In this document: one piece after another, positions 878-8,914 of the stretch
Layout: every line of letters begins with the position of its first letter
Position numbering within the stretch: the stretch's first letter is position 1
Assembly (NCBI GenBank): GCA_964016885.1
Contig: OZ024740.1
Span: forward strand, 127,844,001-127,908,000
Direction of reading: 5' to 3'
DNA from: Eledone cirrhosa
Taxonomy: Eukaryota
DNA: 64,000 bases
The notes under the pieces: model-generated
Database searches by the model: none
What the model saw: only the letters and a program-made list of their open reading frames with translations
What the model was told of the DNA's origin: nothing
Position numbers and translations under genes: made by a program

Positions 878-973
878 ACCCCTTGACAAGTTCGGCGATT
901 TTTTCACCAGGCTAAACATTCTAATTTAGTCTAGAAATAGCCGTCGAAACGGCTTGAGCTCTGCCGTCGGGTT
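878..973 (+). ncRNA. Type I hammerhead ribozyme motif, U3-A8 core variant
   Basis: ccc-TTGACAA-(long helix II)-GAAA-cggc ttgagctct gccg-TC-ggg; predicted cleavage after C968. Confidence 0.65.
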
Positions 974-2318
974 CATGCTTTTTCCTACATATATATATAT
1001 ATATATAGGGGGGGGGGCTGTGTGTGTGAAAATAGCTTCAGAAATTTAGAAAAATAATCTTAAGGGACAAAAAGTGGTTAGCAGCCACTTCACAGTCTTT
1101 AACTCCGCATCACATGATTTCTAGCTAAGTCTATTGCTGTCACGCCACAAGCCAGCTAGGAACAGTTTCTGTCCAAATTAGGAACGATATATATTATCTA
1201 TTCGTTTAACGCTGGAAGAAAGCAAATCTTTCGATCGATTTAGGTAATTGGATGATTTAAAATTTAAATCCAAGCACAGAATAACTATAAATGAAACTCC
1301 CGTAAAATACCCTTAGGAACAAATTATGTTGTCATATTTCATTTGATTTAATCGTAAGGACTTTGTCCGGTATTCAAGATATACGGAGTTTGATTCAAAA
1401 GCAAGTGGTAAAATATATGAATGAGCTTTCTAAAGGTGGTCTAGATGTACAGCACATTAGCTACTTTTGCCTAAATACCTAGTCAGTCATCCACGTGCAA
1501 CTGGTACCTTGTAATCTGGTACAACAAGCTTCATGATTGGGTGGGTGGCGATAAACTTGCTCCTCCTCCAGACCTAATCTTGTGATGAAGGTACGTGGAA
1601 ATCCAACACCATAAAAATGAGCTGTTGCAGCACCATAATAATGAGCTGTTAAATGGCGGATAAACTCGCCAGTGCCAATGGGTCTCTATCCACATATGGT
1701 TTAAATAGTCTTATCCGTCCACATATGCCCATGCCTGGTGAGTAAAGCGACATTTCTTACATACCTAAAACCTAACAAAAAGGTCGACAAGTGAAGGATT
1801 CCTCCACAGGAGTGAGAAATCCTTGGATTGAATTGGATTAACATAGTTGGTATGGGTTGTCTGCGTTCAATTCCTCTCTATTTTACTGCAAATACACTTT
1901 AACTATTCTATCCAAAGGAACTTACAGAGATGTTCCGCCAAGCAGATCCATCAAGCTCGAAATATCTCAGCTGTAAGCCTTTTAAGACCAACATGACCCA
2001 ATAATTAAGGCATAGTCTGTACATGTCTTCAACAATTGATATAGCATGGTTTCAATCCCTTGTTTATTGTTCTTGATATGAAAACATTTCTCTTCAAATT
2101 GGATGATATCGAATGATGTAAATGTTTTCAGCTTGCCATATTTATCATGTGTTACTCTAATATACATATATATTTACATGACTAAATATTACAAATGTTT
2201 ATATCCAAATACACATTGGGGCAGCCATGATTATCCACTCAGTATGTATACAGATACAACTATATATATATATATATATATATATATATAAAACGAAAAA
2301 TTAGTGTAAAATGAGGTA

Positions 2319-2408
2319 TCCTCTTGATAAGTCGGCAGACCTCGCAAGGACTCTTTATCTTTATGATGTATTGTTTTTGTTTATGCCACGAAACTACGTA
2401 GTCGAGGA
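2319..2408 (+). ncRNA. Type I hammerhead ribozyme (U3-A8 core, extended helix II, palindromic helix III)
   Basis: tcctc-TTGATAA-gtcggca...tgccac-GAAA-ctacgtag-TC-gagga; helix I tcctc/gagga, helix II gt(c)ggca/tgccac; cleavage after C2403. Confidence 0.8.
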
Positions 2409-5566: not shown

Positions 5567-7741
5567 ATGCGAAAACACAACATCGACTTCTCTACCAAGA
5601 ACATCCCAGTCCCACCGAAAAAACTTAACCTTCGGATGCTCATGCAAAAAATCGATCTATTTGCGAAACGACTTAGATGGAGAACTTTTTTCTACGACAG
5701 ATATTGCTACAATCAGGACTTCGGTACCAAGGAGAGATTCGGATTTATTACCTACAAATCTCCCCCTCCGAACCCTATGCTCTCACCCTTCGAGAATGAC
5801 CTTTTCCAACTGGTCAAGAACATTAAATTCAAACCCAGACACAACCGATTCCTACAAAAACTCCGTAGCAACTTAACAGTGTATGATAACCCCAATGATA
5901 TCATGGTGAACTCGGATAAAACTGGGAACCTCTACTTTGTCAACCCCGACAGATACCACACACTGATCAGGAGCAGCCTAAACTCCACCTATAAAAAGGC
6001 TAACCACTCATGCATCGAGGACATAAATCGAGATGGACAACAAATTATCTCCAGCCTCGGGATCGCCGACCGCACGGAACCCCTAGACCCACGGACACCC
6101 TACTTCACACTGAAGGACCACAAATCCGATTTCGACCGTAAACCTTCTATCAGGCTTATAAACCCAACGAAGTCCGACATAAGGAGAATCAGCAAACAAA
6201 TCCTAGACCGGGTGATGCCAAAAGTTAAGCAATACACCCGACTTAGCCTATGGGTCAACACCCAGGAAGTAATCTCATGGTTCAGCAATATGGAGGAAAA
6301 ACGAGACACTAAATTCATCCAGTTTGACATAGAGAGTTACTATGCTTCAATCACCTTACCGCTACTTACGGCTGCCATGGACTTCGTCGAAGCACTTGTG
6401 CACATCACCGACCAGGAAAGAAACATCATCCTCAACGCCCGGAAGACTGTCTTACTCTTCGACACGTCCAAATGGATAAAAAGAGCTCCCGACTCACCCT
6501 TCGACGTCAGCATGGGCGCGACGGATTCGGCTGAGGTCACAGATCTTATAGGATTATTCCTAATAGCCATACTCACCGATATGTTTCCTGCATTCGGCGG
6601 TGGATTGTACCGTGATGATGGGATCCTTACCATTAAAGGGTACAACCCCAGTAGTACAGATCGGGTCCGTAAACAATTAATCAGCTTCTTCTGCGACTGG
6701 GGATTTAAAATAACCCTACAAACGTCCCTGACCCGAGTAAACTTCCTGGACGTTACCTTCGACCTCGATAATGATCTGTACTACCCATACAGGAAACCTA
6801 ACGACAACGTGCACTACATCTACCGCCGGTCAAACCATCCTAGGAACATCACCAATAACCTGGTTAAAAACATCTCCCCCCGCATATCCCGTTTGTCAGC
6901 TAATGAGCAGATATTCGATCAACATGCGACTTATTACAATCAGGCCGTCAAGCGGAGTGGTTTCCGGGAGGAAATATCATACTGCCCAGCTTCCATTAGC
7001 GGAACCAGCAAGCGAGACCACCGCTCACGCAATGTAACGTGGTTCAATCCTCCCCACAACGCCGAGGTGACAACTCCTATCGGGAAAATCTTCTTTAGGC
7101 TCATTGAAAAACACTTCCCACTACAACACCGCTACCACAACATAATTAACAAAAATACCATCAAACTCTCTTACAGCACTACACCAAACTTTGCACAAAA
7201 CATCGTCTCCTCTAACAACAAAAAACTCAACCCCTATGGAAGAAATAACCTAAATAGCAGTGGAGAGCCGACCAGGAGGTGCAACTGTCCTGATGGATCC
7301 ATTTGCCCCCTCGACAACAGATGCAGAGATTGTAATGTGATCTACCAGTGCAACGTAAGGACGGACACCTCCAACAAAGCTTATATAGGATTAACCGCAT
7401 GTGACTTCAAGACCCGGCTATACCAACACAGACATACCTTCCGTTACCTGGCCCGGCGTCACGCCACCACACTTTCGGGCCAAATATGGGACCTCAAGGA
7501 TAACAACATTACCTATGATCTCACTTGGAGATTACTGTCCAGAGCCAACTCTTACACGGGAGGACGCCGTCCGTGCAATTTATGCTCGGAGGAAACCTTA
7601 CAAATGCTGTTTTCGACGGACCAACTCCTAAACAAGAAAGATGAACTGGTTACTGCATGTAAACACAGGTTGCGTAGGACTTACCTCGCCCTCAAACCCC
7701 ATAATGACCCGGGGGGGGGGGGGGATAGACTAGAGCTATAA
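5567..7741 (+). CDS. PLE reverse transcriptase + C-terminal GIY-YIG endonuclease (Naiad-like), ~724 aa
   Basis: Uninterrupted ORF from first ATG (accATG); RT motifs FDIESYY, MGA..SAEV.DL.G, YRDD, FLDV; CNCx5CPx4C linker; VIY..YIG, CNLC, CKH. N-terminus FSTKNIP..KRLRW resembles the Naiad clade. Confidence 0.92.
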   Translation: MRKHNIDFSTKNIPVPPKKLNLRMLMQKIDLFAKRLRWRTFFYDRYCYNQDFGTKERFGFITYKSPPPNPMLSPFENDLFQLVKNIKFKPRHNRFLQKLRSNLTVYDNPNDIMVNSDKTGNLYFVNPDRYHTLIRSSLNSTYKKANHSCIEDINRDGQQIISSLGIADRTEPLDPRTPYFTLKDHKSDFDRKPSIRLINPTKSDIRRISKQILDRVMPKVKQYTRLSLWVNTQEVISWFSNMEEKRDTKFIQFDIESYYASITLPLLTAAMDFVEALVHITDQERNIILNARKTVLLFDTSKWIKRAPDSPFDVSMGATDSAEVTDLIGLFLIAILTDMFPAFGGGLYRDDGILTIKGYNPSSTDRVRKQLISFFCDWGFKITLQTSLTRVNFLDVTFDLDNDLYYPYRKPNDNVHYIYRRSNHPRNITNNLVKNISPRISRLSANEQIFDQHATYYNQAVKRSGFREEISYCPASISGTSKRDHRSRNVTWFNPPHNAEVTTPIGKIFFRLIEKHFPLQHRYHNIINKNTIKLSYSTTPNFAQNIVSSNNKKLNPYGRNNLNSSGEPTRRCNCPDGSICPLDNRCRDCNVIYQCNVRTDTSNKAYIGLTACDFKTRLYQHRHTFRYLARRHATTLSGQIWDLKDNNITYDLTWRLLSRANSYTGGRRPCNLCSEETLQMLFSTDQLLNKKDELVTACKHRLRRTYLALKPHNDPGGGGDRLEL

Positions 7742-8818
7742 CACCCCACTTGCCGATTTTGTAATGGGTAACCCATGCTTGCTAAGGCAGACGTAAGATC
7801 ATTTATATCTTTTTATCGCTTCCTCTATATTTTCTTTCCCCCCGTCCCTCCCAAGTCCTTCCACCCCAGTTCTCTTTCTTTGTCGTCGTCTTTTTCTCGC
7901 CCACGCGAGGCAGCCCCTCGGTCCTTTGTAGCCTCAGTACCCGCAACTCCTTCCCCTATTCTATGATAGATTTAGCCGACTCCGCTTTTTATAGCAGATG
8001 TGTTAGACCCCGGATACTTGCCCTCCTATCCGACCGCTGCCCCTTTTCCTTGGTTTCTATATTTCTTAGTGGTATCTTTGCTTTAATTTCTCGTTTATCA
8101 GTATTTTTTTTTGGGGGGGGGGATTCTGAATTAATTCTCCGTATCAAATTTTTACATTTACTTCGTACGGGCTTTTATGTAGCTTCACTAGAACTTTTGT
8201 ATCGTGGCGGCACCCTTAGAGATAGTATTAGTATTCTTTTTCGGAACTCTGAATTATTATTTCGTATTAGTTTACTTTTTTGCACTGGGTGGTTGCTGGC
8301 CTTGTGGCTGGGGTAGAAACCTTTATTTATTATTTCGTGGTAGTTTCTTTAGTATTTTGGCCCCTTACTTGTTGACCCGTCACCGTAAGATATAATCGGT
8401 TTATTACTTATACCTCTTAAAAGGGTCTCATTATAATTCCGTCACCTAGTATATTTGTTTAGCCCAGCAGTACCTGTGAGAGACTTAGGTCGTAGTAAAC
8501 AGAAATTGTTTTTTTTTTTACAATTAATTGCTTTTTAACACTCTCAGTAATTTTCTATATATTTACCCCTTTTTGTTCTACTTATTGTTTCGACTTCCTC
8601 CCCCTCCCCCATCCCTAGTATCTTCTTTGACCTCATGCCCAGCTGTAGTCGGCACTATCAACGCATGAATGGGTCTCCTCCACCCCCGCTCCCTCTTTCT
8701 CCTAATGGCAGGTTTATCTACCCCTTCCCTCCTCAAATTGTCATCATAGAATTATTATGTCTCAACAACAAATTTTTTACCAATCCTTGTGACAATCACT
8801 TTGACCATATATGGAATT

Positions 8819-8914
8819 ACCCCTTGAGACGCTCGCCTATTCAAATACCAGGATAAAAATGTTCATTTAGTCCAGAATTAGCCGTCGAAACGGCTTGAGC
8901 TTAGCCGTCGGGGT
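8819..8914 (+). ncRNA. Type I HHR copy with A9C core change (TTGAGAC), probably impaired
   Basis: Same fold as 5286-5381; C17 at 8909. Confidence 0.7.

Follow-up and report, generated by a model that had tools for sequence, protein, structure and literature searches.

A Hydra-clade Penelope-like element of the octopus Eledone cirrhosa with a U3-A8 hammerhead that is probably a weak, loosely selected self-cleaver

Must the hammerhead in the pseudo-long terminal repeats (pLTRs) of a Penelope-like element (PLE) cleave for the element to transpose? The question is raised by a 64,000-nt stretch of the Eledone cirrhosa genome (GCA_964016885.1, contig OZ024740.1, positions 127,844,001-127,908,000; hereafter the window), which carries a PLE insertion (3568..8929, + strand) with U3-A8 in its hammerheads. 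The role of hammerheads in PLEs has been called unclear (Craig et al., 2021, PMC8557442); this and the other papers cited are drawn on in excerpt, and statements about them refer to those excerpts. We put at roughly 65% the probability that this is a Hydra-clade PLE whose pLTR hammerhead is a weak and loosely selected self-cleaver and whose reverse transcriptase (RT) copies RNA spanning the cut site. Self-cleavage would then likely be helpful for transposition while not being strictly required.

Four related type I hammerhead motifs, with a 56-nt helix II region, were found in the window at 878 (+), 3760-3667 (-), 5286 (+) and 8819 (+). An earlier note on this DNA, made from the letters alone, had placed all four correctly and given them the core UUGA(G/C)AA; the U3-A8 core is intact in three, whereas the fourth (8819..8914, +; C17 = 8909) reads UUGAGAC, a loss of A9 to C that the note left unremarked, and carries a further single change in each of helix II and loop 3. 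From its sequence this motif is likely crippled. The motif at 5286..5381 (+) consists of a 5-bp stem I (ACCCC/GGGGU), the core UUGAGAA (5291-5297), the 56-nt helix II region (5298-5353), GAAA (5354-5357) and a 6-bp helix III closing the palindrome UGAGCUCA, with C17 at 5376 and the predicted cut 3' of C5376. Position 5304 is a private change that breaks a helix II pair and is absent from nearly all of the sequencing-run contigs examined (three contig sets, used for copy variants and junctions only), and a 6-bp hairpin around CGAA (5348..5363, +) is predicted to sequester the GAAA half of the core. The motif at 3667..3760 (-) has the same layout with a 4-bp stem I, U3-A8 and C17 at 3671, and is nearest to the subfamily majority among the window copies. 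The motif at 878..973 (+; core UUGACAA, one stem I mismatch) represents an older subfamily (B type) of the same family, its copy ending near 987 at (TA)n. Within the 3' untranslated region (UTR) of this copy, a short dispersed repeat (583-694) was observed that recurs in at least 7 further places in the window, and over 46-55 nt it is similar to the PLE UTR at 4750-4804.

These motifs have the three helices around NUGANNA, GAAA and UH, with G10.1-C11.1 present, of the type I hammerhead architecture (90% of cells are paired in register as compared with 26-49% when slid), and self-cleavage 3' of C17 is predicted. They are not chance matches, since exact patterns gave 5,189 and 8,173 matches in the genome against 0 and 19 for reversed-pattern controls. 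Single motifs fold only modestly better than shuffled sequences (z -0.7 to -1.9 for 6 window copies). An Rfam scan of window positions 1-12,000 returned no hammerhead among 50 matches at E<=5; more than 13,000 hammerhead-like motifs in one genome thus have a core and helix II that standard descriptors likely miss, as Rfam missed the window copies.

The insertion is set in (TA)n and comprises an inverted 5'-truncated copy (3568..3810, -; 94.7% identical to 5479-5237, ending +103 nt past C17), an upstream pLTR (3817..5396, +; 1.58 kb, with the 3' end of the open reading frame (ORF), a ~1.1-kb 3' UTR and the hammerhead), the ORF (5567..7741, +; 724 aa) and a downstream pLTR (7336..8929, +; ending +20 nt past C17 at 8909, at (TA)n). 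The pLTRs are 93.8% identical, and a poly-G run shifts the last few codons of the ORF. The predicted protein carries an RT with RWR (aa 37-39; both RWR and RWK occur among homologues), DKT (aa 117) and YRDD (aa 348), a CxCx5C linker (aa 572) and a GIY-YIG endonuclease whose YIG (aa 606) follows YRDD, so that the endonuclease is C-terminal within a single ORF. CxCx5C, CxxC (aa 670) and CxH (aa 698) are invariant columns among homologues, and CCHH was absent by eye. A Pfam search with the ORF returned 0 families; the protein is 40% identical over 702 aa to protein P0068, itself a near match, as judged by eye, to what is printed of the Hydra-2_Amil sequence. Hydra-clade PLEs are described as having an RT with a C-terminal GIY-YIG endonuclease, RWK, DKT, CxCx5C and CxxC/CxH around conserved E and N, without CCHH (Craig et al., 2021, PMC8557442). 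By protein motifs and pairwise similarity we assign the element to this clade, and its (TA)n insertion site agrees. Its U3-A8 core and ~3.5-kb unit depart from the C3-G8 hammerhead and the size generally <3 kb of the clade; because these are typical traits and not the clade definition, it is called a Hydra-clade variant. The label Naiad-like, given to it earlier, does not fit. Naiads have an N-terminal endonuclease, DKA in place of DKG, a CxC linker between endonuclease and RT and no canonical hammerhead (PMC8557442), whereas here the endonuclease is C-terminal, DKT stands in place of DKA, an N-terminal endonuclease and a CxC linker are missing and a complete three-helix hammerhead is present. 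Another (TA)n-associated repeat lies on both sides of the insertion (3071-3313, 8999-9369, 10064-10550), a nested use of one microsatellite.

Whether the hammerhead is under selection was examined by comparing the majority bases of 7 old and 5 young subfamily representatives. No differences were found in the core (0/12), helix I (0/10) or helix III (0/8), as compared with 2/12 in the helix II stem, 20/33 in the helix II cap and 2/9 in loop 3; the upstream 100 nt of DNA are 60-73% identical. In a sample of 6,516 copies found with the core left unspecified, the 100 viewed by eye show subfamily-level variation in the core region at positions 3, 7, 8 and 10.2 only. Three of ten helix II pairs change on both sides and 3/5 measures beat all 500 shuffles, from which we conclude that helix II covaries. 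Since the other core bases and helices I and III are fixed and helix II covaries, the alignments indicate that the motif is selected, but loosely. The long helix II region and the palindromic helix III loop described earlier were confirmed, the six-base palindrome being kept in all subfamilies at majority level, and so was selection on the motif as a whole (0/12 in the core and 0/18 in helices I and III against 20/33 in the cap).

The active-fold share is predicted at 4e-6 for the 5286 copy, at 4e-6 to 0.016 for the window copies tested and at 0.47 for one young copy, and one young subfamily has gained a 10.2-11.2 pair with which the hammerhead fold is the minimum-energy structure. The hairpin competing for GAAA has a predicted median probability of 0.80 in copies of the C3.A8 phase described below, as against 0.02 for B-type and 0.31 for the youngest copies. 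An intermolecular duplex through the loop 3 palindrome is predicted at -30.7 kcal/mol as compared with -7.1 kcal/mol for the hairpin, which makes it plausible that the motif acts as a dimer.

The 3:8 states were counted with exact patterns in one pattern context throughout the 3.0-Gb genome, giving 5,189 U3-A8, 1,542 C3.A8, 60 U3.G8 and 12 C3-G8 copies (6,803 pattern matches). Independent single changes predict ~18 C3-G8 copies, and 2-3 of the 12 seen are other sequences by eye, so that there is no C-G excess: the 3:8 pair is Watson-Crick in most copies but without covariation. The covariation support across genomic copies that the claim of a covariant U3-A8 pair called for was thus not obtained. 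A purine at position 3 occurs in only 16 scattered copies of matching subfamilies, and C.A is therefore a lineage state and not noise. A suspected G3.A8 subfamily was rejected, the 16 copies being scattered; two loci 28 Mb apart (L177 and L178) share G3 and a G10.1-to-A change, possibly by duplication or a tiny burst from a core-dead copy.

A tree of the endonuclease DNA, which is independent of the motif and was rooted on other Hydra families (rows L149 and L164, with an unrelated nested endonuclease, being ignored), forms a ladder from U.G through U-A (878 type) and C.A to U-A (5286 type and youngest copies), in which the C.A phase spans at least 6 successive nodes. UTR trees are also ladder-like, two of them containing rows with non-homologous flanks and long branches. 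The approximately unbiased (AU) test on 45 rows rejected one clade for the 32 U-A rows (p-AU 7e-7). Among the first 100 of 142 old copies the pair was U-A in 88, U.G in 8, C-G in 1, U.C in 1 and A.A in 2; one small old subfamily has U.G in 28/31 and A8 in 0/31 copies, and the deepest few rows are U.G. From these trees the order of the master lineage reads U.G, U-A, U.G, U-A, C.A, U-A, the last three steps being firm and the first three weaker. The double change can hence not be said to have been kept in two subfamilies, as had been proposed, because a C3.A8 phase, counting at least 1,542 motif copies, lies between the 878 and 5286 types and a single U-A clade is rejected.

Through the C.A phase the ORF accumulated 51 synonymous and 24 non-synonymous codon differences over 513 codons, with no stops, as compared with 13 synonymous and 30 non-synonymous among the 43 private codon changes of the window copy, which look neutral; these ratios indicate purifying selection on the ORF through that phase. 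The last comparison, into the 5286 type, is less skewed (26 synonymous vs 28 non-synonymous, few rows). The exchange G8A strongly impairs hammerheads. We see about even odds that the C3.A8 hammerhead was catalytically crippled while an autonomous PLE lineage passed through at least 6 successive subfamilies and reached more than 1,500 motif copies, and that the lineage later repaired it. If true, this would be evolutionary evidence, in vivo, that PLEs can retrotranspose without hammerhead cleavage although cleavage is favoured, and nature would have kept a record of how a ribozyme core pair passed through both single-mutant intermediates.

Where copies end bears on which RNA is reverse-transcribed. 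Of 103 copies, 97 were scored with bins of +15-25 and +95-108 past C17; ends lay at ~+20 in 37 and at ~+103 in 54 (91/97), 5 extended into the ORF and 1 ended elsewhere. None of 127 copies, found mainly by patterns stopping before the cut, ended at the predicted cut, the nearest simple repeat being at +7 or +8. A linear monomer ending at C17 cannot be the template, because copies end +20 or +103 beyond it and 0/127 at the cut; the copy ends argue for uncut or re-circularised RNA as the template instead of a linear 3,533-nt monomer. The distances in the proposal that the RNA is processed into a 3533-nt monomer cut 190 nt before the ATG are correct (8819-5286 = 3533; 5567-5377 = 190), whereas the linear template is contradicted by the ends at +20 and +103, and the local downstream motif lacks A9. 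A search of sequencing runs with the PLE found no RNA run among the runs listed. The copy ends agree with findings on the anole PLE PAc, whose RT has two internal start sites and mainly uses unprocessed RNA; hammerhead mutants of that element are without effect on insertion in vitro, and its cleavage needs protein (Frangieh et al., 2024, PMC11167929).

Under the reading we prefer, in which the RT copies RNA spanning the cut site of a weak hammerhead, tandem or read-through transcripts would be bound by the RT-endonuclease, (TA)n would be nicked, and reverse transcription would start internally, at two sites downstream of the hammerhead, on RNA that is uncut or has been cut and re-ligated into a circle. 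Cleavage would probably be aided by pairing of the loop 3 palindromes of two motifs, or by protein, and might be advantageous in freeing the unit, in setting a 5' end 190 nt before the ATG or in allowing circles; this advantage would be large enough for the repeated restoration of U-A and too small to stop the spread of the C.A lineage. A 593-bp tandem element also present in the window (2306..3076, +) may be non-autonomous and travel on machinery of the same kind. In this family the catalytic 3:8 pair forms a natural allelic series that is dated (U.G, U-A, C.A, U-A) and whose lineages each spread; together with the precise mapping of two RT start sites, it makes the role of PLE hammerheads testable with a few short RNAs.

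Several points weigh against this reading. An obligatory circular template would explain copy ends beyond the cut just as well, and if C.A cleaves nearly as well as U-A, it does not follow that cleavage is not strictly required. The deep order U.G, U-A, U.G was pieced from two trees with few rows. Core conservation is inflated because the patterns that found the old subfamilies include some of the core; there are also 0 changes between old and young subfamilies at 14 positions that the patterns do not cover, and the core-unspecified sample agrees. Two of the five helix II measures fail against shuffles (376/500 and 496/500), few independent events being involved, and the folding probabilities are predictions on ~104-nt fragments.

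An alternative that we hold to be unlikely but deserving of attention is that cleavage is essential: the unit would be cut at C17 and closed by ligation into a circle of ~3.5 kb, around which the RT, starting from internal sites, would travel more than once; U.G and C.A would be active enough, and the pair would be flexible but not dispensable. Such a circle would explain insertions longer than one unit, which are found in the window (1.45 units), in tandem copies elsewhere (motif spacings 3118-3593 nt) and in the 593-bp element (up to 5 units); subfamily states are always pyrimidine 3 with purine 8, the purine-3 copies being only the 16 scattered ones; and RNA circles have been put forward for PLEs (Cervera and de la Pena, 2014, PMC4209133) and described in animal retrozymes (Cervera and de la Pena, 2020, PMC7229834). 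It is opposed by the anole PLE, in which a single C3G or G8C change abolishes the hammerhead and leaves insertion in vitro unaffected (PMC11167929), and by the predicted misfolding, which is highest in the C.A phase. Rather improbable, in our judgement, is a motif that no longer cleaves and persists as a structural signal at which the RT binds or initiates. The small predicted active-fold share of the window copies, the RT start sites just downstream of the motif and the tolerance of a 3:8 mismatch would suit such a signal, but it is precisely the catalytic positions that are fixed (U4, G5, A6, A9, G12, A13, A14, the 15.1-16.1 pair and C17) with N7 free, U3 was regained, and the young subfamily with the 10.2-11.2 pair has the hammerhead as its minimum-energy fold. 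A Naiad-like element with a strictly covariant U3-A8 ribozyme releasing a linear 3533-nt monomer for transposition is hardly credible, since the spacing, the cut 190 nt before the ATG and the U3-A8 majority (5,189/6,803) are set against a C-terminal endonuclease with DKT, 1,542 C.A copies, no copy end at C17 and a downstream motif without A9; what may survive of it is a cut mRNA 5' end at 5377.

The 593-bp tandem element is retrozyme-like and was known to the earlier note by its hammerhead at 2319, which was taken as further evidence of selection on the double change. It has 1.3 units in the window, ends +80 past its second C17 and has no recognisable coding ORF, the longest stop-free frame of the unit being 134 aa without a match to the PLE protein. 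Its hammerhead at 2319..2408 (+) has the core UUGAUAA and C17 at 2403, with a helix II region of 59 nt and a helix III that is short and palindromic, and a second one at 2912..3001 (+) carries changes in stem I and helix II. The element is non-coding and lies in (TA)n with inverted truncated copies; the unit measures 591-597 bp in 34/39 listed intervals, arrays reach 5 head-to-tail units, and copies end ~+80 or ~+240 past C17 with 0/61 at the cut. No similarity to the PLE family was found beyond simple repeats. By pattern at least 6,750 U3-A8 motifs were found (a DNA search found only 15 candidates), with 8 variants at position 3, 8 at position 8 and 11 at the free position 7, and one further match likely due to chance. 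Because changes at 3, 8 and 7 are equally rare, the family is too young to show selection and cannot serve as evidence for it. By its DNA sequence, the element fits the description of non-LTR (long terminal repeat) retrozymes. A diverged relative (G000:C1:43266607-43266690, -) was noted by eye, in which U3-A8 is kept and helix II and the helix III palindrome are changed in a compensated way.

Long helix II regions are not tied to U3-A8, as other hammerhead families in the same genome have C3-G8 with 36-52-nt helix II regions; such motifs were seen at L032:1941 and 2424 (+), L012:2731 (-), L021:2902 (-) and L010:381 (+), the L032 pair being spaced 483 nt and perhaps another retrozyme. The window also holds a second, decayed Hydra-clade PLE (13373-11697, -), which is 30-39% identical in aa to the main ORF and is followed downstream, as read by eye, by a canonical CUGAGGA core (~11476-11470, -); related copies are in L149 and L164. 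By eye, a large inverted repeat (13802-15406) contains the endonuclease end of another PLE family and a minimal C3-G8 hammerhead (~15327-15369, +) mirrored on its other arm. Several near-identical copies of a non-LTR retrotransposon with an RT and a C-terminal restriction-like endonuclease lie in both orientations, adjoining (AAT)n, at 36756-42442 and 56059-64000.

The U3-A8 core itself is not new. Natural U3-A8 variants were published in 2011 (Perreault et al., 2011, PMC3088659), and for PLEs the core was reported in 2014 from the Cercyon elements of Schistosoma mansoni, with ~1,300 matches (Cervera and de la Pena, 2014, PMC4209133). What is described here is a known core in an unreported setting, a Hydra-clade PLE. 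The literature search found no octopus PLE hammerhead, no further U3-A8 reports and no C3.A8 kinetics; Lunse et al. on PLE hammerhead variants, where a prior report is possible, and the primary kinetic work on 3:8 exchanges lay outside its coverage. With Cercyon and the U3-A8 variants of 2011 the Eledone PLE shares the exchanged core, the type I arrangement, the location in pLTRs and the short helix I, whereas those are minimal, their helix II measuring 7-8 bp and a stable helix III being absent, and a lineage history of the 3:8 pair is not given in the passages covered.

With Hydra-clade PLEs (Hydra-1_Obim and Hydra-2_Amil; PMC8557442) it has in common the RT with C-terminal GIY-YIG endonuclease, the protein motifs, the (TA)n target and a hammerhead downstream of the ORF. 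However, 26/26 Hydra-clade hammerhead rows in File S2 of that paper have C3-G8 and a short helix II, while the Eledone family has U3-A8, a 53-59-nt helix II region, a 5-6-bp helix III, a ~3.5-kb unit and a ~1.1-kb 3' UTR. A thin metagenome survey of Hydra relatives (16 loci) found a hammerhead <=320 nt downstream of the match in 3, all with C3-G8 and 12-18-nt helix II regions. Naiads resemble the element as PLEs of aquatic invertebrates with a (TA)n target and inverted truncated copies, and their N-terminal endonuclease, DKA and want of a canonical hammerhead all fail here (PMC8557442). Animal non-LTR retrozymes (PMC7229834; Li et al., 2026, bioRxiv 10.64898/2026.07.22.740005) resemble the 2319 element as non-coding tandem repeats with one type I hammerhead per unit, a palindromic helix III and thousands of copies; they differ in their reported unit of ~300-390 bp as compared with 591-597 bp, and the 2319 element has U3-A8 and a long helix II. 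The Poseidon element PAc of Anolis (PMC11167929), whose hammerhead is dispensable for insertion in vitro, is alike in having two RT start sites downstream of the hammerhead that give two copy ends and a tail. It belongs to another clade, and its hammerhead has a C3-G8 core and overlaps the ORF start, whereas the tail of the Eledone PLE measures 83 nt and lies within the 5' UTR.

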